Below, one piece after another: positions 20,892-64,000 of a stretch of 64,000 nucleotides of DNA. Source of the stretch: Candidatus Latescibacterota bacterium. GTDB taxonomy: Bacteria > Latescibacterota > UBA2968. Every line of letters begins with the position of its first letter. The stretch's first letter is position 1. Both the position numbers and the translations under genes were made by a program. The notes under the pieces are model-generated. The model was not told the origin of the DNA. It saw nothing but the letters and a program-made list of their open reading frames with translations, and ran no database searches. The DNA is taken from positions 4,384,001 through 4,448,000 of the forward strand of contig OZ242010.1 of the NCBI GenBank assembly GCA_965204745.1, read 5' to 3'.

Positions 20892-20999
20892 TTCAGCCTC
20901 CTCTCGGGGGGATACACTGTACCGATCATCCTAATGGATTGTGCGGAAAAAGCAACCACGGATTGATATGGTTCAACGCTTAATTCGCATGACTTGCAG

Positions 21000-30200: not shown

Positions 30201-33200
30201 ACGCCTTGGTCGTTGACCGCCCAATGGGACACGAGCACGATGCGATTAGGCTCGTCGTCTTGGGCGTTGTCCACCGCCGTGATGACCACCGTGTCCGACG
30301 CGTTCGTCGTGTCCCCGGCTACAATGACAATCGTCGAATCAGCCGCCACCGTGTAGGTGTTGCCCAAGAGGGGACGCACCGTGATCGTTGTCGCCGCGCT
30401 CGACGGACGCGACAGCGTCGCGCTCACCGTGCTCACGCCGCCGTTTTCCGAAATCGACGCGGGTGACAGCGACAGCCTCACGTCCGGCGCGGCGTCATCG
30501 TCTGTGATCGTCAGGGTCCTGGAAGCCAGCGATGCCACATCGTCGCCTGCCACCGTTCCAGACACGCCTAAGCGCTTGGCCGGTGCATCGGTCGTGTTGT
30601 TCACCGCCGTGATGACCACCGTGTCCGACGCGTTCGTCGTGTCCCCGGCCGCAATGGTGATCGTCGAATCCGACCCCACCGTGTAAGCACCGGTCACCGG
30701 GCGCACCGTGATTGTTGTCGCATCACTCGATGGATGCGACAGCGTCGCGCTCACCGTCGAAACACTACCAGCCTCAGAAATCGACATGGGCGACAGTGCC
30801 AATGTCACCGTCGGTTTATCCAGCGCGAGGCCATAGGGCGTAGTCAATCCTGTGGTGATGAGGTCTTCGACATTGGAGCCATTGAGGTCGGCACGCTGAA
30901 TCTTATCTGTGCCACTGTCCGTCCAGTACATCTTTCCGCCCCCCACATCCAGCGCGATGGCCTCTATCCCACTCAATCCTGTGGTGATGAGGTCTTCGAC
31001 ATTGGAGCCATCGAGGTCGGCACGCTGAATCTTAGCCGGGATCTGGTCCATCCAGTACATCTTTCCGCCCCCCACATCCAGCGCGAGGCCCCATGGCCTA
31101 TCCAATCCTGTGGTGATGAGGTCTTCGACATTGGAGCCATCGAGGTCGGCACGCTGAATCTTATTCGTGCCACTGTCCGTCCAGTACATCTTTCCGCCCC
31201 CCACATCCAGCGCGATGGCCCATGGCGTTCTCAATCCTGTGGTGATGAGGTTTTCGAAATTGGAGCCATTGAGGTCGGCACGCTGAATCCTACTCGTGCG
31301 ACTGTCCGTCCAGTACATCTTGCCGCCCCCCACATCCAGCGCGATGCCATATGGCCTACTCAATCCGCTGATGAGGTCTTCGACATTGGAGCCATCGAGG
31401 TCGGCACGCTGAATCTTATTCGTGCCATAGTCCGTCCAGTACATCTTGCCGCCCCCCACATCCAGCGCGATGCCAAATGGATTATTCAATCCTGTGGTGA
31501 TGAGGTCTTCGACATTGGAGCCATCAAGGTCGGCACGCTGAATCTTATTCGTGCCATAGTCCGCCCAGTACATCTTGGGCGCGTCATCGTCTTCCAGCGT
31601 CAAAGCCGCACCGATCACACTGCCCAGGCCATGGTCGTTGCGTGCCACACCGGACACGGTCACGGCGCGATTAACCTCGTATTGACCGTTGTCCACCGCC
31701 GTGATCGCTACCGTGTCCGACGCGTTCGTCGTGTCCCCGGCCGCGATGGTGATCGTCGAATCCTGTCCCACCGTGTAGGCATTGGCTAAGGGACGCACCG
31801 TGATCGTTGTCGCCGCGCTCGACGGATGCGACAGCTTCGCGCTCACCGTGCTCACGCCGCCGTTTTCCGAAATCGACGCGGGTGACAGCGACAGCGTCAC
31901 GACCAGCGTGGCGTCATCATTGGTGATCGTCCCGGTACCGGTCGCCGTGCTTATCGTCGCATTGACCGCATTGCTCAACTCAACGACCACGGTCTCATTT
32001 TGCTCGTTGGTATCGTCGCCGGTGACGGATACGGCAATGGTATCGCGCGTCACGCCAGCCGCTAAGGTCAGCGTGCCGGCAGCGATTGCGGTGTAGTCCG
32101 TGCCCGGCGTCGCTGTCCGACCCGAGGCGGTTTCCGCATAATCCACCGTCACCACCTTCCCACTCGCCGCGCTCAACGTCACGATGAACTCAAGCGACGG
32201 CGTGGTGCCAGTGGCGCCCTCGGCCACACTCGGAGAACTAATACTCAGCGACGGCTCGTCGTCATCATCGTTGATCGTTCCGGTGCCGGACGCCGTGCTT
32301 ATCGTCGCATTGGTCGGACTGCTCAACTCGACGACCACGGTCTCATTCTCCTCATCAAGGGCATCGCCGCGGACAGTCACCGCAATGGTATCGCGCGTCA
32401 CGCCAGCCGCTAAGGTCAACGTGCCGCCAGTGATTGCCGTGTAGTCCGTGCCCGGCGTCGCTGTCCGACCCGTAGCGGTTTCCGCATAGACCACCGTCAC
32501 TACCTTCCCACTCGCCGCGCTCAACGAGACGATGAACTCAAGCGACGCCGTGGCGCCAGTGGCGCCCTCGGCCACACTCGCATCAGCAATACTCAGCGTC
32601 GGCTCGTCGTCATCATCGTTGATCGTACCGGTGCCGGTCGCCGTGCTTATCATCGCATTGACCGCATTGCTCAACTCAACGACCACGGTCTCATTCGCCT
32701 CATCGAGGGCATCGGCGGTGACGGACACGGCAAGGGTATCGCGCGTCACACCAGCCGCAATCGTCAGCGTGCCAGACGCAAGGGCAGTGTAGTCCACCCC
32801 CGGCGTTGCGGTACGACCCGTAGCGGTTTCCGCATAGTCCACCGTGACTTGCTGACCACTCGCCGGGTTCAACGTCACGACGAACTCAAGGGATGAGGAA
32901 CCGCTCCCCTCGGCCACACTCGGAGAACTAATACTCAGACTCGGCACGCCGTCATCATTGGTGATCGTTCCGGTACCGGTGAGGGTCGCGCCATCGCCGC
33001 TGAGGGTCGCATTGCTCGGATTGCTCAGCCTCACGATCACGGTCTCATTTGGCTCGTTGGTGCCATCACCGGTGACGGACACGGCAAGGGTATCGCTCGT
33101 CACACCGGCCGCGAACGTCAGCGTGCCGGCAGCGATTGTTGTGTAGTCCGTGCCCGAAGTCGCGCTCCCGGTGCCCGCATCCGCATAATCCACCGTCACT

Positions 33201-36200
33201 TGCCGACCACTGACCGCGCTCAACGAGACGATGAACTCAAGCGATGGCGTGGTGCCAGTGGCGCCCTCGGCCACACTCGCATCAGCAATACTCACCACAG
33301 GCGGGTCGTCATCATCGGTGATCGTACCGGTGCCGGACGCCGTGCTTATCGTCGCATTGGTCGGACTGCTCAGCGTCACGACCACGGTCTCATTCTCCTC
33401 ATCGAGGGCATCGCCGGTGACAGTCACGGCAATGGTATCGCGCGTCACGCCAGCCGCTAAGGTCAGCGTGCCGCCAGTGATTGTTGTGTAGTCCGTGCCC
33501 GAAGTCGCGGTCCCGGTACCCGCATCTGTATAGCCCACCGTCACTACCTTCCCACTCGCCGCGCTCAACGTCACGATGAACTCAAGCGACGCCGTCTCCG
33601 TATCGTCGCTCTCGTCCACACTCGGAGAACCAATACTCAGCGTCGGCGGGTCGTCATCATCGGTGATCGTACCGGTGCCGGATGCCGTGCTGATCGTCGC
33701 ATTGCTCGCATTGCTCAGCGTCACGATCACGGTCTCATCATCCTCGTCAAGAGCATCGGCGAGGACAGGCACGGCAATGGTATCGCGCGTCACGCCAGCC
33801 GCTAAGGTCAGCGTGCCGTCAGTGATTGCCGTGTAGTCCGTGCCCGAAGTCGCGGTCCCGGTAGTCGCGTCCGCATAGTCCACCGTGACTTGTTGACTAC
33901 TTGCTATGCTCAACGTGACGATGAACTCAAGGGACGAGGAACCGCTCCCCTCGACCACACTCGGAGAACCAATACTCAACGCCGGCTCGTCATCATCGTT
34001 CACCGTCACCGACACGCTGGCGATAGACATACCAATCCTATAGGATCCCGAAGCGGTGGTAACGCGGTGAGTCACACTCGCGGTGTCGTTCAAGCCATCG
34101 GTATCAGGATTTGCGGTCACGGTCACCGTCTGTGGGCTGTCCCAATTCCCATTTGTGAAGGTCAGCGACGTAGAGGACAAGATGACATCGGTGTTGTTAC
34201 TACTGACGCCAATCACGACGTTGCTGGAGGGTTGGATATCCAGCACGACCGTATAGGTGCCTTGGTTGGCGTTGGAACCCCCGGGATCCTCATTTAACGT
34301 CAGACTGCTCTCGCTGATCGAGACCCCTGCCACCTTGATGGTGAACGACAGACTGGCGCGATCAGTAGGTGTCCTGTCGTCATCCGCATCCACCGCATAG
34401 ATGTTGACGGGGAAAGTACCCCCCGCAGTAGGCGTGCCGCAGATGCTACGCGCCAGCGAGCCGGTACAACTCCCACTACCATCGGCATCAAAGGTCAAAC
34501 CCGCAGGCAAACCGGACGCTTCATAAGTAAGAGCACCATCGCCGTCAGTCGCCGCAGGCACTCGAAACCCCGAAATGCCCTCGCCAGAGGTGAAGGTCAT
34601 GTCAGACACTGAACCAGCACCAAAGGACGGAACCGAGTTCCCACGCGACAAGGTCACAGTGTAGGCCGTGGATTGCGAGCTTTCAGTGACCGAGACCGAG
34701 ACGGTGTTGGCACCGCGATTCAGGGAACTGATGACATGTGTGTCACCGCTGTCGACCGTGTTCGCGGCCCCCCCATTGATGCTGACGCTGATAGTGGCCG
34801 TGCCCAAACTAGCCGTGGGCGTGATATGGAGGGAATCGGTGATGGAGGGGAGGTTCCCAGTGTAGTTGACTATGGACGAGGCGAAGGACGGCATCAGCGT
34901 GACCGACTCGGAAATGGGAATGGATATCCACGCTGTCATGACAGTGGCTGTACTCCCCTCATCATAAATGTGCCACATAACCCCGCCAGAGTCAACTTCG
35001 GCTTGGGTAAGCGTGATCGATGTGGGATGAGTAAGGATTGAGATTTGACGACATCCCGTCCTGCCAGTAGGGTCGCCCTGTCGCGTATCCCTATTCGCAC
35101 AAACATGGTGAAAATACTCATTGGTAGCATCAGAAGCGGGGCCAGTAATCGTTACCGGTTGTGCAGTCGTTTGCGGCAAGAGGGTGCTGAAGCCAATCGA
35201 GAAGGTGGCATAGACTGTAGCTGGATTTTTATACGAGGCGTTAGCCGGCGGATTTTTTGTCGTGGTCACAGCCAGTGCCAGGCCGGACAGCGTCGGTTTG
35301 GGCGTGCCAGTCGCCTCGCTGGAGGCTTCACTGTCGTCTGCATGCGTGCGCGTGGCAATCACCTGAACCGTGTAAGCCGTGCCGCCAGTCAGACCGGGAA
35401 TTTTATGACTCACGCCGGTCACACTGGTCTGACGGTCAGTCGTGTTGTATGCCTGACTCCCAGACTTCCATTGCACCTTGTAACCCGTCGCACCGGTCAC
35501 AGCGTCCCAACTCACCTCGAGGCTATCCACCAAAGCCGTCACCTGCACATTCGTCGGCGCGTCAGGCTGGGGGGCCTTGGGAACGCCGGTCGCACTGTCG
35601 GAGGCTTCACTGTCCTCGAAAGTCGCACGGGTGGCGATCACCCGAACCGTATAAGTCGTTCCAGCGGTCAGATCGGGAATCTTATGACTCACGCCGGTCA
35701 CACTGGCCTGACGATCAGTCGTGTTGTATACCTCGCTCCCAGACTTCCACTGCACCTTGTAACCCGTCGCACCGGTCACAGCGTCCCAACTCACCGATAG
35801 GGTATCCACCAAGGCCGTCACCTGCACATTCGTCGGCCTGACCAGCATGTCGTCATCGTTCACCGTTACCGTCACGCTGGCGATAGACAGACTAGTCGTA
35901 TAGTCTCCCGAAGCGGTGGTAACGCTGTGACTCACTGTCGCGGTGTCGTCCTGGTCATCGGTATCCTGCCCTGCGGTCACGGTCACCGTCTGTGCCGTGT
36001 TCCAATTCCCATTTGTGAAGGTCAGCGACGTAGAGGACAAGGTGACATCGCTGTTGTTACTACTGACGCCAATCACGACGTTGTTGGCGGGTTGGGCATC
36101 CAGCACGACCGTATAGGTGCCGCGGTTGGCGTTGGCCCCCCCGGGAGCCTCCTCTAACGTCAGACTGCTCCTGCTGACGGTCACACCCGCAGATGGCGAA

Positions 36201-39200
36201 ACCGTCACTGTGCTCGTGGTCAGAACACTATTCGCATTACTCCCCGCTGCCAACACCCTCACCGCCAAGGTCTGGGCAGTGGTAAAGTTGCCACTGAAGG
36301 ACAGCGTCAGAACCGCACTAGTCGTACCACCCGCACCTGCTCCCAACGAAGTGATGGACACACTCGGGATAGCCGTCACCAACTCGAAGTGAGAGGCACT
36401 TACACCACTGCTGAACAGGGCATGTTGCAACGTCAGCGTGACCGTCGCGCTGTTCAGATTGGACTCGGTCAACGAAGCGGGATTAGTCGAAGAGATCGAG
36501 ACCCCTCTCACATTGATGGTGAACGACAGACTGCCGCGATCAGCAGGGGTCCTGTCGTTATCCGCATCCACCGCATAGATGGTGACAGAGGAAGTACCCC
36601 CCGCAGTAGGCGTGCCGCAGATGGTACGCGCCCCCGTACAACTCCCACTGCCATCGGCATCAAAGGTCAAACCCGCAGGCAAGCCAGTCGCTTCATAAGT
36701 AAGGACACCATCGCCGCCAGTCGCCGCAGGCACTTGAAACTCCGAGCTCACGCCAGCGGTGAAGGTCTGTGTAGTCACTGGGGTATCAAAGGACGGAACC
36801 GAGTTCCCACGCGACAAGGTCACAGTGTAGGGCAGGGAGCCCGATCTTTCAGTGACCGTGACCGAGACGGTGTTGGCACCGCTACTCAGGGAACTGAGGG
36901 TGTGTGTGCTCGCGCTGGCGACCGTGGTCGCGGCCCCCGCATTGAGGCTGACGCTGATCGTGCTCGCGGCCGAACTGGCAGTAGGTGTAACCCGCAGACT
37001 GTTGCGATTCTGGGCAATCGCCCCTGTGTATGCGGTAGTCCCCGCGCTGAAGGTAGGCGTCAGCGTGACCGCCGCGTCGGAAACGGGAATGGGTATCCAC
37101 TCTCTTATGACAGTGACTTCACCCTCCCCCTCCCAAACGTGCCACATGACCCCGCCAAAGTCAACCTCGGCTCGGGTGAGCGTGATCGATGTGGGATGAT
37201 TAAGTCTTCCGATTTGACGACATCCCGTCCTGCCATCAGGGTTGACCTGTCGCGTATCCTTATCCGCACAAACATAGTGAAAATAAGAAGAATTCCCATC
37301 AGAAGGGGGGCCATTATTAATCGTTACCAATTGCGAAGTCGTTTGCGGCATGAGGGAGGTGAAGCCAAGCGAGAAGGATGTATAGGTTGTAGCTGGATTT
37401 TTATACGAGGCGTTAGCCGGCGGAGCGACTATCTTGGCCGCAACCAGTGTCAAGCCGGACAGCGTCGGCGAGGCGTCATTATCGTTGATCGTTCCGGTGC
37501 CGGTCGTCGTGCTTATCGTCGCATTGGTCGCATTTCTCAGCGTCACGATCACGGTCTCATTTGGCTCGTTGGCATCGTCACCGGTGACAGTCACGGCAAG
37601 GGTATCGCTCGTCACACCAGCCGCGAACGTCAGCGTGCCATCAGTGATTGCAGTGTAGTCCGTGCTCGAAGACGCGGTCCCGGTGCCCGCATCCGTATAG
37701 CCCACCGTCACTTGCCGACCACTGACCGCGCTCAACGTGACGATGAACTCAAGCGACGCCGTGTCCCCATCGTCGACCTCGGTCACACTCGCATCAGCAA
37801 TACTCAGCGACGGCTCTTCGTCATTATCTCTAATCGTCCCGGTGCCGGTGAGGGTTGAACGACCGCCGGCGAAGACCGCATTGATCGGACTTCTCAGCGT
37901 CATGATCACGGTCTCATCATCCTCATCGAGGGCATCGTTAGTGACGGACACGGTAATGGTACGGCTCGTCACACCTACCGCGAACGTCAACGTGCCATCA
38001 GTGATTGCGGTATAGTCCGTGCCCGAAGTCGCGGTCCCGGTAGTCGCGTCTGTATAGCCCACCGTGACTTGCTGACCACCGGCCGCACTCAACGAGACGA
38101 TGAACTCAAGGGATGAACCGCTCCCTTCAGCCACACTCGGAGAACTAATACTCACCATCGGAAGACTGACGCCAGCGTCCTGTAGCGTCAAAGAGGCCCC
38201 GGTCACACTGCCCGCGCCATGGTCGTTACTCGCCACACCGGTCACGGTCACGACGCGATTACTAGCATCAATTTGGCCGTTATTCACCGCCGTGATCACT
38301 ACCGTGTCCGACGCGTTCGTCGTGTTCCCGGCGGCAATGGCAATCGTCGCATCCGACCCCACCGTGTAACCACCAGTCACCGGGCTCACCGTGATAGTCG
38401 TCGCCTCACTCGATGGATGTGCCAGCGTCGCCGTCACCGTGCTCACGCCGCCATTTTCCGAGATTGACGAGGGCGACAGCGTCAGCTGCACGCTCGGCGC
38501 GTCATCATCGTCTGTGATAGTCAATGTCACGGCAGACGGGGCCAACGCCCCATTGCCACCCGCCACCGTTGCAGACACGGTCACGCGCTTGTCCGGTGCA
38601 TCGGTCGTGTTGTTCACCGCTGTGATCGTCACAGTGCCCGTGCTCGTCGTCGCATTCGCCGCGATAGTCAGCGTGGCCGTGCTCGATAGCGTGAAGTCGC
38701 CCGCAACCGCAGGCGACACAGCCTGTGCTGAGACCGTGATCGTCGTCGCCGCGTTCGACGGATGTGCCAGCGTCGCGCTCACCGTGCTCACACCGCCGTC
38801 TTCCGAAATCGACGCGGGCGTCAGTGCCAACGTCACACTCGCGGGTTGGAGCCGAAATTGCACGGTGGTGTCCAGGCCGGCATACTTCAACACGGGATAC
38901 TGATCCGTCGCGCCAAAGTACCACGGCTCGTCGTTGCCCGTTTGCCCGTCCAGATTCAGGTTCCAGTTGGTGGCATAGATGCCGGTATAGCCGGTGGGGC
39001 TTTGGAGTGCGCTGGTGGCCTGGGGGATACCTTTTCCGGTGTCGTTTTGTCCAGTGGTGGTACTATCGTAGTAGCTGTGGCTACTTGAGCTACCAAATGC
39101 TTGGGTACCAACCAGGCCACCAACCGATGACGGGGTAGCACCACTGACCGGGCCGATGGCATAGCTACCGGTTATCGTGCTCTGATCGAAGTTGGCACCG

Positions 39201-45187: not shown

Positions 45188-45256
45188 TTAGAACACCTAA
45201 AAATAAAGTTGGGAACTCGCCACAATGCAAAGTTAATAACCTTGCCGAAACCGATA

Positions 45257-48511: not shown

Positions 48512-48651
48512 AATTGCTCCTCAATGCAGGGGTTGGGAGTGAATGTGGTTCCAAGGTTGAACAGGGCCGGCGTTCTGAAGTCAACATTGTATTGACGAGC
48601 CAGTTCGGTTTTGGCGTGTTGAATTTCGCCATTTACCGTTCCGCGCAGATA
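48508..48651 (-). pseudogene. Start-less C-terminal remnant of a former upstream partner gene
   Basis: YLRGTVNGEIQHAKTELARQYNVDFRTPALFNLGTTFTPNPCIEEQL*; its TGA overlaps the ATG of the GHKL gene and it begins at the sbcC stop. Confidence 0.4.
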
Positions 48652-48653
48652 AA

Positions 48654-53063: not shown

Positions 53064-53650
53064 GTCAGTCCCCACTTGACCCCACCGCCCAAGTAGTCAG
53101 TGGTCAGTCCCCGCCTCGCCGCCCAAAACCGAGACGTGAGACCGTAGGGGCGATGCCCTCGTGCTCGCCCATCCGCCCCGCCGTGTCTGAATCGCGGATT
53201 AAACGGATTAGGGGATTGCGCGGATTACCCCACACCACCCTACCGCAAGCCCTATCCCCCCGGGCCCCGTTATTCGCTTCGCTCATTGTAGGCTACGCCT
53301 GTGCCTACAAGGAAAGGGGGAGCGCATGGCTTTCTTGAAGGGTTGTATCCCTGGCTATTCTGATGGCTTTGGGCGAATGGATCGCGCCATGAAAATGCGA
53401 CCTATCCCCCCGGCCCCCTTTCCTACGAGGAAAGGGGGAGCGCGTGGCTTTCTTGAAGGGTTGTATCCAGGGCTGTTTTGATGGCTTTGGGCGAATGGAT
53501 CACGCCATAGAACCCCAAACCCCCCTCGCGCAATCCTTCGCACAACCTTTCGCCATTCCCCCTTCCTCTTAGGAAGGGGGCCAGGGGGTAGGTCCCCCTC
53601 GCATCCCCCGCCCCATCATCCGTAGGGACAGGCCCCTGTGCCTGTCCTAA
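53064..53650. repeat. Intergenic repeat mosaic: GTCAGT heptamers, GTAGGGGCG and GTAGGGACAGG palindromes, CGGATT repeats and 1.5 copies of the 42734-type element
   Basis: 53399-53602 aligns with 42741-42914; 53251-53395 is a partial tandem copy. Confidence 0.8.
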
Positions 53651-53689
53651 TCGCTTGGCTGACCACCGATCCCATCGTCATTTTACCGC

Positions 53690-53734
53690 TTGACAAACAA
53701 TAGCGCGATACTTTATTTTTTTCATTCACCATTG
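53690..53734 (+). promoter_or_regulatory. Promoter for leader plus G3, with conserved TTCACCATTG box
   Basis: TTGACAAACAA at 53690, AT-rich -10 near 53714, TTCACCATTG at 53725; same elements upstream of G2. Confidence 0.6.
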
Positions 53735-53800
53735 CGATTTTGAACGCGGAGAAAAAGCCGCGCCCGGTCTGTGCGACAGCTTTTGCAAAGGAGGATTCAG

Positions 53801-53971
53801 ATGATCACCGCCATTTTTAGCCGCTGTTTGAACCTCATTTGGCTCGATGTTCCCTCCGCGAAAAGTGGTGTTCATATCGCCCATCCTCGTCTTGGGACGT
53901 GGTTCTATTTTATTGCAAAACAGCCTGTTAGGATGATCAGTACATGCCCCTCGAGAGGGGGAACAAAATGA
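53801..53971 (+). CDS. Leader peptide of G3 (56 aa), translationally coupled by ATGA overlap
   Basis: AAGGAGG RBS; MITAIFSRCLNL...RLGTWFYFIAKQPVRMIST; TGA 53969-53971 overlaps ATG 53968. Confidence 0.75.
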   Translation: MITAIFSRCLNLIWLDVPSAKSGVHIAHPRLGTWFYFIAKQPVRMISTCPSRGGTK

Positions 53972-56900
53972 CGCCACGCTACGCTCACTTGTTGGCCCTG
54001 ATCGTGCTGGTCATGCTGGTGGCATCGGGGCCGGCTTTTGCCCAAAGCACCGTCGACTACGACTTGGACAATGATGGCTACATTGATGTAGCCAACCTCG
54101 CACAACTCAACGCCATTCGCCACGACCTCAACGGCAACGGCGACGCCACGCACGCCGACTACCTCGCCGCATTCCCCAGCCGCGACACTACAACCACAGG
54201 GCGCATGGGTTGCCTGTCCGGGACATGCACGGGCTACGAACTCACCGCAAGCCTAGACTTCGACAGCGACAGAGATGGCGATGTTGACGCCAACGACCAT
54301 GGCGGTGCTTACTGGAACAACGGCGCGGGCTGGGTGCCCATCGGCTCTAATTCAAGCAGATACTCAGGCGATTTCAAGGGCAACGGATACACTATCAACA
54401 ATCTGTTCATCAGCCGCGGCGGCACCAACTACATCGGGCTTTTCGGTGTCAGTGCCAGCGGCGCCCGCCTCGAAACCTTAGGCATAACCAACGCCAATGT
54501 TAGAGGACAGCAGTTAGTCGGCATTTTGGTCGGCAGAAATTACGGCACAATTGTCGCCTGTTACACCACCGGCAAGGCGCAAGGCGACGCTTTTATAGGT
54601 GGAATAGTAGGCACCAGCAGCGCGACTATATCCACTAGCTACTCTACTGCCTATGTCAGCGGAACTAACTCTCTCGGCGGCCTAGTGGCTTATTCGTATG
54701 GCGGCACTGTAGAAAACTCCTACTCCACCGGCAGGGTCAGTGGTAGCTACAGCGTCGGCGGGTTAATGGGATTTATATATTATCTCAATAGCCCCCGCGT
54801 TACCGCCAGCTACTGGGACACCCAGACCAGCAATCAGAGCAATAGTGTTGCCGGCACAGGCCAGACCACCACCGCCCTCCAAGGTCCCACCGGCTACACC
54901 GGCATCTACGCCAACTGGAACGCCAACCTCGACGGACAAACCGGCAACGACAATCCGTGGACCTTTGGCAAGACAGATCAATATCCCGTGTTGAAATATG
55001 CCGGCATGGACACCACCGTGCAGTATAACTTGCAACCGCCGGGCATTCCGACAAGTGTGACCGTGACGCCACAAAGGGACACCTTGGACGTGCGTTGGCG
55101 TGCGGCGAGTTATGCGACGGGGTACAAGGTGCAGTGGAAAGCCGGCATGCAGAGCTACGCCGCCTCGCGTCAGGCGACCGTCGCGGATACGCTCCACCAG
55201 ATCCCCAACTTGATCGGCGGGACGACCTACACAGTGCGGGTCATTGCCACCAAGACCGGTGCCCGCGATGGCATGCCCTCGGCAGAGCAGACCGGCGTTC
55301 CCGCCGCGCTGGGCAGTCCGACTGTGATGGTGGCGGCGAAGGTGGACACGCTGACCGTGACTTGGAATGCGGTGCCCAACGCAGCCGGATATAAGGTGCA
55401 GTGGAAATCCGGGTCAGCGACTTATCCCACCTCCGATAGGGCGTTGGCCACGCATGGGCAAGCCACTATCGCTGGTGGGAGCACCACGATCCACAAAATT
55501 TCTGGGCTGACCGTAGGGACGACCTACACGGTTCAAGTCATCGCCACGAGTACCAATACCAATGTAGCCGACAGTACCCCCTCAGAGGAAGTGATCGTCC
55601 TTCTCGCGCTGGGTAGCCCGACGGGTGTGGAGGTGAGTGCGAAGGTGGACACGTCGACCGTGACTTGGAATGCGGTGCCCCTCGCAACCGGGTATAAGGT
55701 GCAGTGGAAATCCGGGGCAGAGACTTATCCCACCGCCGATGAGGAGTCCGCCACGCGCGGGCAAGCCACTATCGCTGGCGGGGGCACCACGATCCACAAA
55801 ATTTCTGGGCTGACCGCAGGGACGACCTACACGGTTCAAGTCATCGCCACGCACACCACAACGGCCGGCAACAGTGCCCCTTCGCAGGAAGTCATGGTGA
55901 CTGCGGCGACAACCAAACCCACCAATGTGCGCGTGACGCCGGGGCCGGGCCAACTCATTGTGGCTTGGACCGAGGCAACCGGCGCGACGGGCTACAAGGT
56001 GCAGTGGAAGTCCGGGCAACAGACCTACAACACATCTGATCGCCAGACGACGGTCTCTGGGATGAGCACCACGACCTACACGATAGAGAACCTGACTTTT
56101 GGCACGACCTACACCGTGCGCGTCACTGCTACCATGGCAGGTGGGACCGATAGTGATCCCTCGGACGAGGTCATAGGCACGCCCCAAAGGATCAATTACG
56201 ACAGGGATGGCGATGGCCTCATCGACATTAAGACGCTGGCACAACTGCATGCCATCCGCTGGGATCTCAACGGCGATGGGGTCGTCGCCGATAATGATAC
56301 CATGAACTACAACGCCGCCTTTCCCAGCCGCGACATCACCAGCAATGTCCGGATGGGTTGCCCTTCCGGAACCTGCACAGGCTACGAACTGCTCAACAAC
56401 CTCAACTTTGACGAGAATGGCGACGACCAAATCACCTCAGCAGACGCCACCTACTGGAACAACGGCGACGGCTGGTTGCCCATCGGCACAAACGCCGCCA
56501 GATACACCGGCGATTTCAAGGGCAACGGCTACACTATCGACAACCTGACCATCAACCGCCCCTCCCTCACTGAAGTGGGATTATTCGGCAATGCCGACAC
56601 CGCCTCCCGCATCGAGTCCGTCGGCGTAACCAACGCCAGTGTTGCGGGAGGCGAATATGCCGCCGCTCTGGTCGGCGCCCTGCGCGGCACAGTCGTCGCC
56701 TGCTACTCCACCGGCAACGTTTCGGCGACGACTAGGGTCGCCGGTGGACTGGTCGGATGGACGCCCAACGCCATTACCTCAAGCTACTCCACCGCATCCG
56801 TCAGCGGCCCCGAGCACGTCGGCGGACTGCTGGGAGCAAGCCAAGGCGGCTCCGTAACGAACTCCTACTCCACCGGCACGGTTACCGGCACCGGCAGTTC

Positions 56901-59900
56901 TCCACTCGTCGGCGGGTTGATAGGCTCCGGCACGGGCGGCACCGCAAGCTACTGGGACACCCAAACCAGCGGCTGTACATCCGGCGGCAACAACGGTTGC
57001 ACAACCAGCGCCGGCGGTGGCGGCGTTACCGGACTGACGACCAGCGAGCTCATAAGCCCCACCACCTACGGTGCCACCAGCAACGACACCTACTACGGCT
57101 GGAACGCCAACCTCGACGGACAACCCGGCAACGACGATCCGTGGACCTTTGGCGCGACAGATCAGTATCCGGTCTTGAAATATGCCGGCATGGACACCAC
57201 CGCGCAATTTCAGCTCCAACCCGCGAGAGTGATGTTGACCCTGATGCCCTCGTCGATCTCGGAAAGCGGCGGGATGAGCACCGTGACCGCGACGCTGGCA
57301 CACCCGTTGAGCGCGGCCACGACGATCACGGTGCGCCCGGTGGCGGATGCTTACACGGTGGGGTCGGATTCGACGATCACCATCGCGACCGGGAGCACGG
57401 CGAACGCGTCGGACACGGTGGTCATCACAGCGGTGGACAACACCCAAGACGCGCCTAATCGCGACGTGGACATGTCCGTTGTGGCGGGCAACGCCCAAGG
57501 CGCGGGCAGTGTGACCGAGGCGACTTTGACGTTGGAGGACGACGACCCTGCACCGACAGCGACGTTGGCGGCGTCACCGGCGTCAATTTCGGAGAACGGC
57601 GCGGTTTCGACGATCACGGCGTCGCTATCGCGTCCATCGAGCGCGGCCACGACGATCACGGTGCGCCCGGTGGCGGGTGCTTACACGGTGGGTTCGGATA
57701 CGACGATCACCATCGCGGCCGGGGACACGATTAACGCGTCGGATACGGTGGTCATCACATCGGTGGACAATCCCCAAGACGCGCCTAATCGCGACGTGAC
57801 CGTGTCCGGTGTGATGAGCAACACCCAAGGCGCGGGCAGTGTGACCGGGGCGGCTTTGACTCTGACAGACGACGACGCTGCGCCGGACGTGACGCTGGCA
57901 CTGATGCCCTCGTCCATCTCGGAAAACAGTGGGGTTTCGACGGTGACGGCAACGCTGTCGCATTCGTCGAGCGCGGCCACGACGATCACGGTGCGCCCGG
58001 TGGCGGGTGCTTACACGGTGGCGGCGACGGATTCGACGATCACCATCGCGGCTGGGCAAACCGCGAACGCGTCGGACACGGTGGTCATTACAGCGGTGAA
58101 CAACGACATAGACGCAATGGACAACGAGGTGATGGTGCAGGCCGATGTGGAGAACGACCACGGCGCGGGCACCGTGCAGGCTGTGACGCTGACGATCACA
58201 GACGATATGGGCACGCCCCAAGCGATCAATTACGACAGCGATGGCGATGGCCTCATCGACATTAAGACGCTGGCACAACTGCATGCCATCCGCTGGGATC
58301 TCAACGGCGATGGGGTCGTCGCCGATAGTGATACCACGAACTACAACGCCGCCTTTCCCGGTCGCGACACCACCAGTAGCGGCCGGATGGGTTGCCCTTC
58401 AGGAACCTGTACCGGCTACGAACTGATGAACAACCTCAACTTTGATGAGAATGGCGACGGCGAAATCACCTCAGCAGACGCCACCTACTGGAATAGCAAC
58501 GCGGGTTGGCTCCCTATTGGGACTTACACTGGTACGTTCAAAGGCAATAACAAGACCATCTCCAACCTGTACATCAACCGTGGCGGTACCGTCTCCAACC
58601 TGGGAATCGTCAGTGGCGGTCAGGATGATGTTGGGCTGTTCGGTCGTGTCAGCGGCAACATTTCCGGTCTGGGGCTGAAAAATGTCAATGTAAGAGGCAA
58701 AAACCGAGTGGGTGGGCTGGTCGGCGAACAGGTGGGAGGCCGCATCCTGGGCTGTTATGTCACGGGTCGCGTTGAGGGTACTGGTCACCATGTGGGCGGT
58801 TTGGTGGGTAATTCAAGCGGCAATAATACCATCATCGCGGCCAGCTATGCCGATGCTGAGGTCTCCGGAGGGCTTATTCACGAAGGGGTAGGCGGTTTGG
58901 TGGGCAAACTATATGCTACGGTGATAGCGTCCTACGCCATCGGGCCGGTGACTGGAAGGTCGAGGGTCGGCGGTTTGGTGGGGCTCTTGGTCATTTCTCC
59001 TAGTTCGGTTAGTACCAGCTATGCCACGGGGACAGTCACTGGGCAAGTATCCAGCCTTCTAGGCGGATTGATCGGGAGGGCACAATCACAATCAGTGTCC
59101 CATAGTTACTGGGATAGGGAAAGTAGCGGTCTTTCATCCAGTGCTCGCGGCACGGGCCAGACCACCAGCGCGTTGCAGTCGGAAACGGATTACGACGGCA
59201 TCTACGCCAACTGGAATGTGGATGTCGATGGCAGGTCTGGCAATGACGATCCGTGGACCTTTGGCGCGGCGGATCAGTATCCGGTCTTGAAATATGCTGG
59301 CATGGATACCACCGCACAATTTGCAATGCAACCGCCGGGCATTCCGACAAGTGTGACCGTGACGGGGCAAACGGACACCTTGGACATGCGCTGGACTGCG
59401 GCGAGTTATGCGACGGGGTACAAAGTGCAGTGGAAATCCGGCATGCAGAGCTACGACGCCTCGCGTCAGGCCACCACCACAGAGACGCGCCACAAGATTT
59501 CCAACTTGACGGCGGGGACGACCTACACAGTGCGTGTCATTGCCACCAAGACCGGTGCCCGCGATGGCCGGCCCTCGGCAGAGCAGACCGGCGTTCCCAC
59601 CACCACGCTGGGCAGTCCGACTGTGATGGTGGCGGCGACGGTGGACACGTTGACCGTGACTTGGAATGTGGTGCCCAACGCAACTGGGTATAAGGTGCAG
59701 TGGAAATCCGGGTCAGAAACTTATCCCAACGCCGATCTGGAGACCTCCGCCACGCGCGGGCAAGCCACCATCGCTGGCGGGAACACCGCGATCCACAAAA
59801 TTTCTGGGCTGACCGCAGGGACGACCTACACGGTTCGCGTCATCGCCACGAGTACCAATATCCATGTAGTCGACAGTGCCCCTTCGGCAGAGCAGACCGG

Positions 59901-62900
59901 CATTTCCGTGCTGGGTAGCCCGACGGGTGTGGAGGTGAGTGCGACGGCGGACACGCTGACCGTGACTTGGAATGCGGTGTCCAACGCAACCGGGTATAAG
60001 GTGCAGTGGAAATCCGGGTCAGAGACTTATCCCAACGCCGATCTGGCGTCTGCCTTGCGCGGGCAAGCCACTATCGCTGACGGGCGCACCGCGACCTACG
60101 ATATTTCTGGGCTGACCACAGGGACGACTTACACGATTCGCGTCATCGCCACGCGTACCAATGTAGCCGACAGTGCCCCCTCGGAGGAAGTGACCGGCGT
60201 TCCCGTGCTGGGTAGCCCGACGGGTGTGGAGGTGAGTGCGAAAGTGGACACGCTGACCGTGACTTGGAATGTGGTGCCCAACGCCACCGGGTATAAGGTG
60301 CAGTGGAAATCCGGGTCAGAGACTTATCCCAACGCCGATCTGGCGTCTGCCTTGCGCGGGCAAGCCACTATCGCTGACGGGAGTGCCACGACCCACAAAA
60401 TTTCTGGGCTGACCGCAGGGACGACCTACACGATTCGCGTCATCGCCACACGTACCAATGTAGCCGACAGTGCCCCTTCGGAGGAAGTCATGGTGACCTC
60501 GGCGACAAACAAACCCACCAATGTGCGCGTGACGCCGGGGATAGCCCAACTCATTGTGCGTTGGACCGAGGCAACCGGCGCGACGGGCTACAAGGTGCAG
60601 TGGAAGTCCGGTGGACAAAGCTACAACACATCTGATCGCCAGGAGACGGTCTCTGGAGGCAGCACCACGACCTACACGATAGAGAACCTGACGATAGGCA
60701 CGACCTACACCGTGCGCGTCCTTGCCACCCTGGCAGGTGGGACCGATAGCACGCCCTCGGACGAGGTCATGGGCACGCCCCCGGGGATCAATTACGACAG
60801 CGATGGCGATGGCCTCATCGACATTAAGACGCTGGCACAACTGCATGCCATCCGCTGGGATCTCAACGGCGATGGGGCCATAGATGCAAGTGTCTCGACC
60901 AGCGATACGACCGCCTACAACGCCGCCTTTCCCAACCGCGATACTACCAGCAATGTCCGAATGGGCTGCCCTTCCGGGACCTGCACAGGCTACGAACTGA
61001 TGGCGAATCTCAACTTTGATGAGAACGACGACGGCGAAATCACCTCAGCAGACGCCACCTACTGGAATGGCAACGCGGGTTGGCAACCCATTGGGACTTA
61101 CACCGGTACGTTCAAGGGCAATAACAAGACCATCTTCAACCTGTACATCAACCGCGGCGGTACCGTCTCCAACCTGGGAATCAGTGGCGGTCAGGATGAT
61201 GTTGGGCTGTTCGGTCGTGTCAGCGGCAACATTTCCGGTCTGGGGCTGAAAAATGTCAATGTAAGAGGCAAAAACCGAGTGGGTGGGCTGGTCGGCGAAC
61301 AGGTGGGAGGCCGCATCCTGGGCTGTTATGTCACGGGTCGCGTTGAGGGTACTGGTCACCATGTGGGCGGTTTGGTGGGTCATTCAAGCGGCAATAATAC
61401 CATCATCGCGGCCAGCTATGCCAATGCTGATGTCTCCGGAGGGCTTTTGCATGAAGGGGTCGGCGGTTTGGTGGGCAGACTATATGCTACGGTGATAGCG
61501 TCCTACGCCATCGGGCCGGTGACTGGAAGGTCGAGGGTCGGCGGTTTGGTGGGGAGGTTGGACATTTCTCATAGTTCGGTTAGTACCAGCTATGCCACGG
61601 GGACAGTCACTGGGAACAACCAAACATCCACCTTTCTAGGCGGATTGATCGGGAGGGCACAATCACAATCAGTGTCCCATAGTTACTGGGATAGGCAAAG
61701 TAGCGGTCTCTCATCCAGTGCTCGTGGCACGGGCCAGACCACCAGCGCGTTGCAGTCGGAAACGGATTACAACGGCATCTACGCCAATTGGAATGTGGAT
61801 GTCGATGGCAGGTCTGGCAATGACGAGCCGTGGACCTTTGGCGCGGCGGATCAATATCCCGTGTTGAAATATGCCGGCATGGACACCGCCGCACAATTTG
61901 CAATGCAACCGCCGGGCATTCCGACAAGTGTGACCGTGACGCCACAACCGAGTGCCTTGGACGTGCGCTGGACCGCGGCGAGTTATGCGACGGGGTACAA
62001 GGTGCAGTGGAAAGCCGGCGGGCAGAACTACGACGCCTCGCGTCAGGCCACCACCACAGAGACGCGCCGCAAGATCTCCAACTTGGCGGTTGGGACGACC
62101 TACACAGTGCGCGTCATTGCCACCAAGACAGGTGCGAGCGATGGCCGGCCCTCGTCAGAGGTCGCGGGCACCATAACGATTATGAATTACGATAGCGATG
62201 GCGATGGCCTCATCGACATTAAGACGCTGGCGCAACTGCATGCCATCCGCCACGACCTCAACGGCGATGGGGTCGTCGCCGATAGTGATACCATGACCTA
62301 CAACGCCGCCTTTCCTGAGCGCAACACCACCAGCAATGGCCGGATGGGTTGCCCGTCCGGCATATGCACGGGCTACGAACTCGTCGCAAGTCTTGACTTT
62401 GACAGCGACAGCGACGGCGATGTTGACGCCAATGACCACGCCGGTGCCTACTGGAACAGCGGCACCGGCTGGTCCCCAATCGGCAATAATTCTGTCAGAT
62501 ACACAAGCGATTTCAAGGGCAACGGTCACACTATCAACCACCTGTTCATCAGCCGTAGCAACACCGACAATGTCGGGCTGTTCGGTGGTATTCACAGCAC
62601 ATCTCGCATCGAGACGCTGGGCATAATCAACGCCAATGTCACAGGAAGGGGATATAGCGGCATTCTGGCAGGCAGAAGCTACGGCACAGTCGTCGCCTGT
62701 TATACCACCGGCGCAGTGCAAGGCGGAGATAGCGTTGGTGGATTAGTTGGCTACCAAAACCAAAACTCAGCAGTTATCAACTCCAGCTACTCTACTGCAT
62801 CCGTCAGCGGTGCCTCCTATGTCGGCGGACTGGTCGGGCGCAAGTTTGGCAATGTAACAAACTCATACTCCACAGGCAGGGTCAGCGGAACCGGAGGCAA

Positions 62901-64000
62901 CATCGGCGGGCTAATCGGATCCTCTACTACAGGTAGCACAACCAATAGTTACTGGGACACCTCCACCAGCACCCGTGCCACCAGCGGGGGCGGCGGCACG
63001 GGCAAGACCACCAGTGAGCTCCAGAGCCAGACCACCTACGGTGCCACCAGCGACGACACCTACTACAACTGGAACGCCAACCTCGACGGACAAGCCGGCA
63101 ACGACGATCCGTGGACCTTTGGCAAGACGGATCAGTATCCGGTGTTGAAGTATGCCGGCATGGATACCACCGTGCAATTTCAGCTCCAACCCGCGGTAGT
63201 GATGTTGACCCTGATGCCCTCGACGATCTCGGAAAACAGTGGGGTTTCGACGGTGACCGCGACGCTGGCACACCCATTGAGCGCGGCAACGACGATCACA
63301 GTGCGTCCGGTGGCGGATGCCTACACGGTGGGGTCGGATTCGACGATCACCATCGCGGCCGGGAGCACGGCGAACGCGACGGATACCGTGGTCATTACAG
63401 CGGTGAACAACACCCAAGACGCGCCTAATCGCGACGTGACCGTGTCCGTTGTGGCACGCAACGCCCAAGGCGTGGGCAGTGTGACCGAGGCGACCTTGAC
63501 GCTGGAGGACGATGACGCCGCGCCGGACGTGACACTAATGCTGTCGCCCGCGTCCATCTCGGAGAACGGCGGTGTCTCGACGGTGACTGCGACGCTGTCT
63601 CATGCGTCAAGCGCGGCGACAACGATCACGGTGCGCCCGGTGGCGAATGCTTATACCGTAGGGTCGGATTCGACGATCACCATCGCGGCCGGGGATACGA
63701 CGAACGCGGCGGACACAGTAGAGATCACGGCGGTGGACAACACCCAAGACGCGCCTAATCGCAATGTGACCGTGTCCGGTGTAGCGAACAACGACCAAGG
63801 CGCGGGCAGTGTGACCGGCGCGGCTTTGACGATCACAGACGATGACGCGGCCCCGGACGTGACGATGATGGTGGCACCGGCGTTGATTTCTGAAGCTGGC
63901 GCGGTTTCGACCGTGACAGCGACCCTCTCGCACCCATCGAGCGCGGCGACGACGATCACGGTTTCAGCGTCGGCTGTGTCGCCTGCGGTTCCTGGCGATT
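53968..64000 (+). CDS. Giant secreted adhesin-like protein G3, 3'-partial (>3340 aa): 5 GLUG-like modules, 10 Fn3 repeats, Ig/Calx-like repeats
   Basis: Frame 1 translates MTPRYAHLLALIVLVMLVASGPAFAQ and stays in frame at the points checked up to the last base; absence from the ORF track fits a missing stop; ATGYKVQWKSG Fn3 repeats. Confidence 0.9.
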   Translation, partial: MTPRYAHLLALIVLVMLVASGPAFAQSTVDYDLDNDGYIDVANLAQLNAIRHDLNGNGDATHADYLAAFPSRDTTTTGRMGCLSGTCTGYELTASLDFDSDRDGDVDANDHGGAYWNNGAGWVPIGSNSSRYSGDFKGNGYTINNLFISRGGTNYIGLFGVSASGARLETLGITNANVRGQQLVGILVGRNYGTIVACYTTGKAQGDAFIGGIVGTSSATISTSYSTAYVSGTNSLGGLVAYSYGGTVENSYSTGRVSGSYSVGGLMGFIYYLNSPRVTASYWDTQTSNQSNSVAGTGQTTTALQGPTGYTGIYANWNANLDGQTGNDNPWTFGKTDQYPVLKYAGMDTTVQYNLQPPGIPTSVTVTPQRDTLDVRWRAASYATGYKVQWKAGMQSYAASRQATVADTLHQIPNLIGGTTYTVRVIATKTGARDGMPSAEQTGVPAALGSPTVMVAAKVDTLTVTWNAVPNAAGYKVQWKSGSATYPTSDRALATHGQATIAGGSTTIHKISGLTVGTTYTVQVIATSTNTNVADSTPSEEVIVLLALGSPTGVEVSAKVDTSTVTWNAVPLATGYKVQWKSGAETYPTADEESATRGQATIAGGGTTIHKISGLTAGTTYTVQVIATHTTTAGNSAPSQEVMVTAATTKPTNVRVTPGPGQLIVAWTEATGATGYKVQWKSGQQTYNTSDRQTTVSGMSTTTYTIENLTFGTTYTVRVTATMAGGTDSDPSDEVIGTPQRINYDRDGDGLIDIKTLAQLHAIRWDLNGDGVVADNDTMNYNAAFPSRDITSNVRMGCPSGTCTGYELLNNLNFDENGDDQITSADATYWNNGDGWLPIGTNAARYTGDFKGNGYTIDNLTINRPSLTEVGLFGNADTASRIESVGVTNASVAGGEYAAALVGALRGTVVACYSTGNVSATTRVAGGLVGWTPNAITSSYSTASVSGPEHVGGLLGASQGGSVTNSYSTGTVTGTGSSPLVGGLIGSGTGGTASYWDTQTSGCTSGGNNGCTTSAGGGGVTGLTTSELISPTTYGATSNDTYYGWNANLDGQPGNDDPWTFGATDQYPVLKYAGMDTTAQFQLQPARVMLTLMPSSISESGGMSTVTATLAHPLSAATTITVRPVADAYTVGSDSTITIATGSTANASDTVVITAVDNTQDAPNRDVDMSVVAGNAQGAGSVTEATLTLEDDDPAPTATLAASPASISENGAVSTITASLSRPSSAATTITVRPVAGAYTVGSDTTITIAAGDTINASDTVVITSVDNPQDAPNRDVTVSGVMSNTQGAGSVTGAALTLTDDDAAPDVTLALMPSSISENSGVSTVTATLSHSSSAATTITVRPVAGAYTVAATDSTITIAAGQTANASDTVVITAVNNDIDAMDNEVMVQADVENDHGAGTVQAVTLTITDDMGTPQAINYDSDGDGLIDIKTLAQLHAIRWDLNGDGVVADSDTTNYNAAFPGRDTTSSGRMGCPSGTCTGYELMNNLNFDENGDGEITSADATYWNSNAGWLPIGTYTGTFKGNNKTISNLYINRGGTVSNLGIVSGGQDDVGLFGRVSGNISGLGLKNVNVRGKNRVGGLVGEQVGGRILGCYVTGRVEGTGHHVGGLVGNSSGNNTIIAASYADAEVSGGLIHEGVGGLVGKLYATVIASYAIGPVTGRSRVGGLVGLLVISPSSVSTSYATGTVTGQVSSLLGGLIGRAQSQSVSHSYWDRESSGLSSSARGTGQTTSALQSETDYDGIYANWNVDVDGRSGNDDPWTFGAADQYPVLKYAGMDTTAQFAMQPPGIPTSVTVTGQTDTLDMRWTAASYATGYKVQWKSGMQSYDASRQATTTETRHKISNLTAGTTYTVRVIATKTGARDGRPSAEQTGVPTTTLGSPTVMVAATVDTLTVTWNVVPNATGYKVQWKSGSETYPNADLETSATRGQATIAGGNTAIHKISGLTAGTTYTVRVIATSTNIHVVDSAPSAEQTGISVLGSPTGVEVSATADTLTVTWNAVSNATGYKVQWKSGSETYPNADLASALRGQATIADGRTATYDISGLTTGTTYTIRVIATRTNVADSAPSEEVTGVPVLGSPTGVEVSAKVDTLTVTWNVVPNATGYKVQWKSGSETYPNADLASALRGQATIADGSATTHKISGLTAGTTYTIRVIATRTNVADSAPSEEVMVTSATNKPTNVRVTPGIAQLIVRWTEATGATGYKVQWKSGGQSYNTSDRQETVSGGSTTTYTIENLTIGTTYTVRVLATLAGGTDSTPSDEVMGTPPGINYDSDGDGLIDIKTLAQLHAIRWDLNGDGAIDASVSTSDTTAYNAAFPNRDTTSNVRMGCPSGTCTGYELMANLNFDENDDGEITSADATYWNGNAGWQPIGTYTGTFKGNNKTIFNLYINRGGTVSNLGISGGQDDVGLFGRVSGNISGLGLKNVNVRGKNRVGGLVGEQVGGRILGCYVTGRVEGTGHHVGGLVGHSSGNNTIIAASYANADVSGGLLHEGVGGLVGRLYATVIASYAIGPVTGRSRVGGLVGRLDISHSSVSTSYATGTVTGNNQTSTFLGGLIGRAQSQSVSHSYWDRQSSGLSSSARGTGQTTSALQSETDYNGIYANWNVDVDGRSGNDEPWTFGAADQYPVLKYAGMDTAAQFAMQPPGIPTSVTVTPQPSALDVRWTAASYATGYKVQWKAGGQNYDASRQATTTETRRKISNLAVGTTYTVRVIATKTGASDGRPSSEVAGTITIMNYDSDGDGLIDIKTLAQLHAIRHDLNGDGVVADSDTMTYNAAFPERNTTSNGRMGCPSGICTGYELVASLDFDSDSDGDVDANDHAGAYWNSGTGWSPIGNNSVRYTSDFKGNGHTINHLFISRSNTDNVGLFGGIHSTSRIETLGIINANVTGRGYSGILAGRSYGTVVACYTTGAVQGGDSVGGLVGYQNQNSAVINSSYSTASVSGASYVGGLVGRKFGNVTNSYSTGRVSGTGGNIGGLIGSSTTGSTTNSYWDTSTSTRATSGGGGTGKTTSELQSQTTYGATSDDTYYNWNANLDGQAGNDDPWTFGKTDQYPVLKYAGMDTTVQFQLQPAVVMLTLMPSTISENSGVSTVTATLAHPLSAATTITVRPVADAYTVGSDSTITIAAGSTANATDTVVITAVNNTQDAPNRDVTVSVVARNAQGVGSVTEATLTLEDDDAAPDVTLMLSPASISENGGVSTVTATLSHASSAATTITVRPVANAYTVGSDSTITIAAGDTTNAADTVEITAVDNTQDAPNRNVTVSGVANNDQGAGSVTGAALTITDDDAAPDVTMMVAPALISEAGAVSTVTATLSHPSSAATTITVSASAVSPAVPGD

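Follow-up and report, generated by a model that had tools for sequence, protein, structure and literature searches.

Translated leaders that govern the gene behind them through stalling or coupling are found in SecM-secA, MifM-yidC2, TnaC with Rho, and mgtL/mgtP, and the homopolymeric tracts of Campylobacter and Neisseria contingency loci lie in the main open reading frame (ORF) or in the promoter, where they are typically about 8-15 nucleotides (nt) long. We describe here a leader ORF with a poly-C tract that precedes genes for giant secreted proteins in a Candidatus Latescibacterota bacterium. The stretch of DNA analysed (the window, 64,000 nt) corresponds to positions 4384001-4448000 of C1, the single contig of a 5.48 Mb genome (G000), and holds two such cassettes, termed G3 and G2, together with the remnant of a third, G1. 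Two congeners (G018 and G016) were compared with it. In the pil1 locus of Streptococcus gallolyticus, a GCAGA repeat tract within a leader-peptide gene drives pilus phase variation (PMC3894217), and in mgtQ-mgtB a translated leader ORF controls the downstream gene (PMC8092293). The MifM leader is the subject of PMC4423224.

The predicted cassette occupies about 330 nt 5' of a giant gene and would comprise, in this order, a TTGACA promoter, an untranslated region (UTR), a GGAGG motif, an ATG, about 48 codons, the palindrome GTACAnTGTAC, a poly-C tract, a second Shine-Dalgarno (SD) sequence and the ATG of the giant gene, whose product would be an adhesin-like secreted protein. As in pil1, a repeat expected to be hypermutable lies inside a short leader-peptide gene 5' of a surface-structure gene; in pil1, a change in tract length moves the point where translation of the leader ends and hence changes downstream expression (PMC3894217). 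The pil1 system is a single locus that works by ribosome-dependent destabilisation of a terminator (PMC3894217), whereas the present cassette has a poly-C tract of 12-31 nt, a predicted polyproline product and about 37 genes. Unlike pil1, it has no intrinsic terminator between leader and structural gene (the search for terminator-like sites gave none at 53500-54100 and none at 40000-40600 of the window), and its tract abuts the SD of the main gene. With the Campylobacter and Neisseria loci (PMC8355987 and PMC5084427) it shares G/C homopolymers in the 5' region of surface-protein genes, a large number of loci and host association. Unlike in those loci, the tract stands in a separate conserved upstream ORF and measures 12-31 nt, and switching is proposed from the sequence. 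Like the stalling leaders, the cassette has a short ORF with its own SD that ends beside the main ribosome-binding site (RBS), with conserved residues just before a potential stall site; unlike them, it has a predicted SD-masking hairpin that is no better than chance and a peptide whose middle is unconstrained, and no tool matched it to a known arrest motif. What is unusual in the cassette is the placement of the tract in a conserved upstream ORF, its predicted reading as polyproline, its position against the main RBS and its recurrence at many loci of a candidate-phylum animal symbiont. It appears to match no family or paper within reach of our searches; in the library searched, no paper was found that deals with sponge symbionts or Latescibacteria and reports either phase variation or poly-C leaders in them.

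Conservation of the leader reading frame

A preliminary description of the window had aligned the G3 and G2 leaders without gaps and counted 29 identical residues out of 48, nine of them encoded by different codons. Recomputation gave exactly these figures, and all nine codon pairs were recovered (ACT/ACC, GCT/GCC, TCC/AGC, CGT/CGC, CTG/CTC, GGG/GGT, GGT/GGG, TTT/TTC and CAA/CAG). The GGAGG-type RBS reported for both leaders was also found (Table 1). The two sequences differ at 41 nucleotides, all 3' of the start codon and distributed 17/6/18 over codon positions 1/2/3. When 41 differences were placed at random in G3, the mean identity was 22.4/48, and 29 or more identical residues were reached with P = 0.0027 (20,000 trials). 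In the other two forward frames, 21/47 and 18/47 residues are shared and stops are present in both. The pairwise signal is real but modest; the other copies of the leader, which are numerous, provide the strong evidence.

Codon tests were carried out on the 31 copies of G000 in which both anchors are present (25 copies measure 144 nt and six 156 nt). Over 31 copies of 48 codons, frame 0 contained no stop, whereas frame 1 had 84 and frame 2 had 38. The tree of these copies carries 254 parsimony changes, distributed 80/73/101 over the codon positions. About 8.3 of these changes would be expected to create a stop, and no leaf contains one (two nominal 'stop' changes on the tree are an artefact of ordering multiple hits within a codon). 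Synonymous changes numbered 87 against 67 expected (p = 0.004), and the ratio of non-synonymous to synonymous changes on the tree (omega) was about 0.72 in frame 0, whereas the other frames gave 1.17 and 1.36. Bona fide signal peptides from 22 paralogs served as a positive control, and their first 27 codons had an omega of 0.70. Pairwise comparison of the copies in G000, by the ratio of non-synonymous to synonymous divergence (dN/dS), gave 0.47 in frame 0 against 0.86 and 1.25 in the other frames. Single codons followed the same pattern: all four GGN codons are in use at G32 (12 synonymous and 3 non-synonymous changes), and the synonymous to non-synonymous ratio was 4:0 at A39, 5:0 at Q41, 7:1 at F37 and 2:0 at F6. 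Only one of the 36 copies located by motif in G000 is broken (c1080087+, with a stop after 35 amino acids (aa) and an out-of-frame deletion). In-frame insertions and deletions (indels) amount to +12 nt in six copies and to +33, +9 and -57 nt in the congeners.

The signals for initiation are kept as well. Most of the 36 listed copies have GGAGG, GGAGA or GGGAGG before the ATG, even where the remainder of the UTR is unrelated, and a few copies have a weaker leader SD (for example AGAGAG, CGAGAC or GGCGGG). Identity between species was 0.35 in the distal UTR, 0.56 in the SD region, 0.74 in codons 1-12 and 0.73 in codons 34-48. Over codons 1-12, the between-species dN/dS was 0.17, against 0.68 and 0.96 in the other frames, the proportion of synonymous differences (pS) being 0.55 while the residues are kept. 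Comparison of the G2 leader with contigs of three sequencing runs from different studies revealed three differences, which we class as two synonymous changes (CTT to CTG and TTT to TTC) and one Leu to Ile replacement; single-base indels in these contigs occurred solely 5' of the ATG.

Some paralogs use the leader start codon directly. Four deletion derivatives devoid of a tract (c4580234+, c1650946-, c183382- and c2402600-) join the leader in frame to the main ORF. In a subfamily of five members, MITALFRSRLLALVALGMLVASGPAFAQT is read from the SD and start codon of the leader, the leader SD, ATG and first six or seven codons being joined directly to the signal peptide (M/V-I-T-A-L-F-R-S-R-L-L-A-L-V-A-L-G-M-L-V-A-S-G-P-A-F-A-Q). 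This form is either ancestral or a deletion derivative. The leader ATG thus serves as the gene start in nine derived paralogs (four plus five).

The preliminary description had preferred a translated ORF to an untranslated conserved UTR, and this preference is borne out. The frame is open in nearly all copies, the synonymous excess is found in frame 0 only, indels are mostly in frame, SD and ATG are kept in an otherwise diverging UTR, some paralogs have the leader ATG as their start, and no signal of RNA structure was obtained (see below). On this evidence the leader ORF is very probably translated in vivo.

A poly-C tract of variable length between leader and main gene

In most copies the end of the leader follows the order ...ISTVY, C run, (T)CGAGAGG(G/A)G, 5-8 nt, main ATG. 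The tract measures 12-25 nt at 24 loci of G000 and 9-31 nt at 13 loci of G018 and G016. These 24 and 13 tracts exceed the length of about 8 nt or more taken to mark a hypermutable homopolymer, and the CCCC of G3 does not; in eight other copies of G000 the tract is 4-6 nt long or interrupted. The tract lies within the predicted leader ORF, after about 50 open codons with their own SD and ATG, and translation of a tract of at least 15 nt would give five or more consecutive prolines in every frame. Leader tracts account for 24 of the 30 C/G runs of at least 12 nt in the genome and for 24 of the 40 runs of at least 9 nt, with C always on the sense strand.

All 15 of the most similar paralog pairs listed differ in tract length. 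The cassettes at G000:C1 5306537-5306714 (-) and 3550311-3550490 (+), for instance, are 99% identical over the 150 nt 5' of the tract and contain 17 and 19 C, respectively. As these two cassettes head different gene families (MMPRYAH... and MVLFIF...), recombination shuffles leaders among main genes, and its junction lies at the tract or close to it. Tract length determines the predicted end of the leader frame. The frame may close at an ATGA overlap or a few nt short of the main start codon; it may continue in register into the main ORF; or it may overrun the main start in another register and end some 35-40 codons further on.

The cassettes of the window

The coordinates of the features are collected in Table 1. 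The promoter-like site of G3 has 10/12 consensus matches against 0.4 expected in shuffled sequences, and TTGACA occurs at the same place in paralogs and in a congener. The TGA of the G3 leader (53969-53971) overlaps the ATG of the giant gene (53968-53970) as ATGA, and since the tract has decayed to CCCC, the G3 copy is fixed in this state. The giant protein of G3 begins with an N-terminal Sec-type signal peptide, MTPRYAHLLALIVLVMLVASGPAFAQ. In G2, the tract length of the present assembly sets the leader in frame with the main ORF. The SD of the main gene is kept as GAGAGG(G/A)G in the paralogs and in G018 and G016. By eye, a hairpin followed by T's is seen 5' of the G1 remnant, where the end of G2 also lies.

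Table 1. Positions of cassette features in the window and, in the last row, of the five-member subfamily in the genome.
Feature	Position	Strand	Details
G3 candidate sigma-70-like promoter	53690..53719	+	TTGACA, 18 nt, TATTTT; consensus match only
G3 inferred 5' UTR	53726..53800	+	
G3 leader SD, GGAGG	53790-53794	+	6 nt 5' of ATG
G3 leader ORF	53801..53971	+	ATG 53801; 56 codons; MITAIFSRCLNLIW...FYFIAKQPVRMISTCPSRGGTK; full peptide MITAIFSRCLNLIWLDVPSAKSGVHIAHPRLGTWFYFIAKQPVRMISTCPSRGGTK
G3 poly-C remnant, CCCC	53947..53950	+	
G3 main-gene SD, GAGAGGGGG	53953..53961	+	6 nt 5' of main ATG
G3 giant secreted protein	53968..64000	+	runs past the window end; 3765 aa in the genome; fn3 and GLUG
G2 candidate sigma-70-like promoter	40374..40401	-	TTGACA, 16 nt, TACATT
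G2 leader SD, GGGAGGG	40309-40303	-	
G2 leader ORF, conserved 48 codons	40154..40297	-	ATG 40297-40295; MLTAIFSRCSNLFGD...FYFLAKQSVRVIST
G2 poly-C tract	40129..40148 (genome 4424129-4424148)	-	20 C on the coding strand, equal to six prolines
G2 main-gene SD and start	40109..40128	-	SD GAGAGGAG 40128-40121; ATGATG start 40114-40109
G2 giant secreted protein	21236..40114	-	6292 aa from its own ATG; Calx-beta and GLUG
G1 leader remnant	20892..20950	-	last ~50 nt (ATTAGGATGATCGGTACAGTGTATCCCCCC) and SD; main ATG 20891
Five-member subfamily loci	G000:C1 about 3152180, 3793124, 2620009, 3988398, 5088386	+, +, -, -, -	

Distribution of the cassette

A blastn search with positions 53640-54060 of the window produced 52 segments in G000, of which 37 span the leader ORF. 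A profile of the peptide matched G000 at 37 places, G018 14 times (at 12 distinct loci) and G016 once. The same search in 28 other genomes of the family gave nothing convincing, 18 further species of the genus among them being without a match; in G041, a single weak match (expect value E = 0.002) contains a stop. Thirty-six copies of G000 were located by motif, and c4852810- was added by the profile and a scan for tracts. In the table of main ORFs, the row of c3823270- was left out because its 5' key is identical to that of c2402600-.

Immediately 3' of every leader copy examined there is an ORF of 838-6292 aa that encodes a Sec-type signal peptide, the main proteins being giant secreted proteins with fn3, GLUG or Calx-beta domains. 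Two exceptions, at G000:C1 276048 (+) and 4491778 (+), have main ORFs of only 59 and 128 aa, which are probably frameshifted or decaying members of the giant-gene group, or assembly errors. The main ORFs counted total 76,721 aa, about 4% of the genome.

Among 1.84 billion protein cluster representatives, 24 matches were obtained, all of them starting from residue 1-5. Eight of the 24 are fusions of the leader to proteins of 306-2446 aa, and three (P0037, P0039 and P0040) resemble frameshifted copies. A collection of 5.8 billion proteins contained 18 matching predicted proteins of 55-89 aa. The phage collection gave no match to the leader, the metagenome contig search gave 45 pattern matches of which none was confirmed, and the genome contig search returned only the congeners G018 and G016. 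Sequencing runs that hold the locus include sponge metagenomes. The G3 peptide matched no Pfam family, and 23 members gave only scattered, unrelated Pfam matches (E of at least 0.03); no usable match for the leader peptide was obtained in the ESM Atlas.

RNA structure and DNA motifs around the leader

An Rfam scan (E up to 10) gave best scores of 11-20 bits against thresholds of 33-95. The covariation check proposed in the preliminary description also came out negative, RNAalifold giving an empty consensus, without consensus pairs, for 39 aligned cassettes. The 260-nt leader folded no better than shuffled sequences (z = +0.75), and the same was true of the tract/SD regions (z = -0.04 and +0.93). 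An explanation by RNA structure was rejected on these three grounds. A CCCCC(U)-loop-(A)GGGGG hairpin over the main SD is predicted in many copies and is no more stable than shuffled sequence; sequestration of the SD by the C run, not being beyond chance, was kept only as a minor element of one alternative below.

The palindrome GTACAnTGTAC stands directly 5' of the tract in both species (53940-53946 and 40160-40149 (-) of the window, and the G018 loci), and a GATC a few bases 5' of it is kept between species even where the codons have changed. Palindrome and GATC are possibly a site for protein binding or methylation, or a small hairpin. On the reverse strand, the same 31 copies contain 12, 90 and 151 stops in the three frames, and an antisense gene corresponding to an 83-aa ORF of the minus strand (53726-53977) was rejected as not conserved.

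A model for the cassette and its alternatives

The best reading of these data is a translated leader that would act in cis and carry a hypermutable poly-C switch, an interpretation for which the case is evenly balanced. Its parts are of different strength. That the leader acts in cis rather than as a free product is probable; that phase-variable switching is the purpose of the tract may equally well be right or wrong. Ribosomes starting at the leader ATG would translate the tract as polyproline and arrive 3-10 nt from the main SD. The length of the tract would then pick the stop point, leading to coupling of termination and reinitiation at ATGA, to fusion with the preprotein, or to an out-of-frame overrun of the main start. 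Because a homopolymer of 15-30 nt slips readily at replication, about 24 loci would switch heritably and reversibly, which would amount to phase variation of surface proteins. The model supposes that the tracts slip within populations and that the frame affects expression of the main gene. G3, having lost its tract, would be locked in the ATGA-coupled state. A distinct and rather improbable extension is a heritable 'rheostat', in which the end of the conserved leader peptide would form a polyproline arrest module of variable length. The paused ribosome might shield the C-rich RNA from Rho and expose or cover the main RBS according to tract length, so that some 24-37 surface proteins would be set jointly by replication slippage and by translation capacity (elongation factor P, EF-P).

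Several observations weigh against the cis-acting switch. The peptide constraint is weak, with a tree omega of only about 0.72. Over the whole ORF, the between-species dN/dS was 0.71, against 0.86 and 0.72 in the other frames, reaching 1.29 in codons 13-33 and 0.81 in codons 34-48. Within G018 it was 1.07, although frame 0 contains no stop compared with 24 and 12 in the other frames. Two G018 copies are frameshifted within the leader and still open (L043, by a compensated double shift, and L045, by a +2 shift). Codons 43-48 are without synonymous change in G000, indicating a constraint at the nucleotide level alongside the coding one. The three frame relations are uniform, 9/8/6 among 23 long-tract copies of G000 and 4/5/4 among 13 loci of G018 and G016, and no frame state stands out as 'on'. 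This distribution fits stochastic switching; it is equally expected if the frame is irrelevant or if it arises from assembly errors of one base in the homopolymer. Copies with decayed tracts, together with c2402600-, are fixed in all states (four fused, two ATGA, two stopping 8 nt upstream and one overrunning), and their main ORFs are still long.

The leader might instead be a polyproline-arrest or attenuation leader without phase variation, tract-length variation being a mutational by-product. During a stall on at least five prolines, about 17 conserved residues (Y.IAKQ.VR.I.T.Y) would occupy the exit tunnel, and the ribosome would cover C-rich RNA, a potentially ideal Rho loading site, and expose or occlude the main SD, tying expression of the giant gene to translation capacity (EF-P, prolyl-tRNA). 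At least five prolines are indeed predicted in every frame from tracts of 15 nt or more, and long tracts persist in three species. The conserved residues (Y.IAKQ.VR.I.T(V/M)Y) stand directly N-terminal of the putative stall site, Y36, I38, Q41 and T48 being invariant or nearly so, and the pre-tract segment is one of the two stretches of the cassette that are best kept between species (identity 0.73). Genes for Rho and EF-P were found, and uniform frame relations would be expected. However, eight copies of G000, G3 included, have only 4-6 C's and no polyproline, yet long main ORFs, and shuffled sequence folds just as well as the predicted SD hairpin (z = -0.04 and +0.93). We consider this explanation unlikely; an arrest peptide or regulator role of the leader, as raised in the preliminary description, is possible. 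Less probable again, the leader could be the true N-terminus of the preprotein, that is, an extended n-region of its signal peptide with an intragenic tract (in frame on, out of frame off), the second SD and ATG serving as a back-up start. It is in frame in 9 of 23 long-tract copies of G000 and in 4 of 13 loci of G018 and G016, a share that equals chance (one third). Nine paralogs begin their preprotein with the leader N-terminus, and in the library eight of 24 representatives are leader-giant fusions and 24 of 24 match from residue 1-5. By eye, leader codons 8-12 (CGC TGT TTG AAC CTC) resemble CGC TTG TTG GCC CTG of the signal peptide, which, together with the nine paralogs starting at the leader ATG, suggests that the leader arose from the 5' end of the gene itself. 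Against this N-terminus, the main ORF retains in every species a strong SD and an ATG of its own, canonically spaced, and a Sec signal peptide about 65 residues from the N-terminus would be atypical. A resemblance to the extended-signal-peptide family (MxxIFRRxxN) was discarded, no such match or other Pfam match being found at E up to 10.

The least likely readings are a free microprotein and an untranslated element. A free-standing microprotein acting in trans as an export helper, chaperone or regulator would account for the open frame, for the ends kept at the amino-acid level and for the separate protein of 55-73 aa predicted by gene callers in several assemblies. This is the point at which the preliminary description, which had favoured a real microprotein, is not supported. 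The middle third of the leader is neutral (dN/dS of 1.29 in codons 13-33 between species), the within-species ratio is about 1 (1.07 in G018), and the middle takes indels of -19 to +11 codons. The C-terminus runs into the variable poly-C/polyproline tract and changes from copy to copy with its length. AlphaFold2 gave two low-confidence helices with a mean predicted local distance difference test score (pLDDT) of 58 and a predicted template modelling score (pTM) of 0.29; with no Pfam family and no usable match in the ESM Atlas, a folded microprotein was rejected. Neither purifying selection over the whole length nor occurrence independent of the neighbour was found, the leader always lying 5' of, or fused to, a giant gene, and 37 diverging copies are hard to square with a single function in trans. 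A free product is very unlikely, and to call the peptide a microprotein probably claims too much for it. In our reading, selection maintains uninterrupted translation between the ATG and the end of the ORF and preserves both ends of the peptide, not its middle. We give still less weight to a conserved 5' UTR without translation, kept as an RNA structure, as a DNA site for protein binding or through homogenising gene conversion, whose open frame would be incidental. In its favour, codons 43-48 and GTACAnTGTAC are kept at codon positions 1, 2 and 3 alike, recombination at or near the tract has shuffled leader types among main-gene types, and the tree omega is only 0.72. It is opposed by the lack of structure in Rfam, RNAalifold and folding scores (z = +0.75, -0.04 and +0.93), by a synonymous excess and an absence of stops confined to frame 0, by codons 1-12 keeping their residues at a between-species pS of 0.55, and by nine paralogs in which the leader ATG is the start; it is highly improbable.

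Other observations in the window and genome

Upstream of the G3 promoter-like site, two copies of an 87-nt repeat, 118 nt apart and 92% identical, lie at 53304-53508 amid C/G-rich palindromic units. Over 53100-53650, the summed contig depth was one to two orders of magnitude above that of neighbouring single-copy genes in four runs. This raised depth points to a high-copy intergenic repeat family, and the same holds at 40424-40897 and 42320-42793. Short tandem units (GTAAGAG/GGTAAGA-type and TCAGTAG-type) are found 5' of the G2 promoter at 40575-40660 (-), and contigs of several runs differ in length there (joints at 40546-40612).

Possible strain differences were also seen between the two cassettes. 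In run X7, one contig passes directly from 45187 to 48655 and lacks the 3467 nt between them, and 45638-46585 has almost no cover in runs X3, X7 and X9 and is covered in X1. From this pattern, the 1084-aa ORF at 45257-48511 (-) may be present in some strains only. Outside the cassette, the genome contains six other C/G homopolymers of 13-21 nt (G000:C1 732472, 1578675, 1833000, 4540232, 3250395 and 4295687), two of them with identical flanks; these could be additional hypermutable sites.

Implications

The anatomy of the cassette leads to inconsistent gene calls, the same arrangement being predicted as separate proteins of 55-100 aa, as giant proteins with an N-terminal extension, or as frameshifted genes. 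It also calls for caution in the discovery of small proteins, as conservation at the codon level denotes translation and not a functional free peptide. If the proposed switch is real, a single uncultured sponge symbiont would possess about two dozen giant surface or secreted proteins that can be switched independently. The known designs would be joined by one with its repeat inside a conserved upstream ORF, where it is translated into polyproline, and the biology of contingency loci would extend from pathogens to a mutualistic or commensal symbiosis with an animal.

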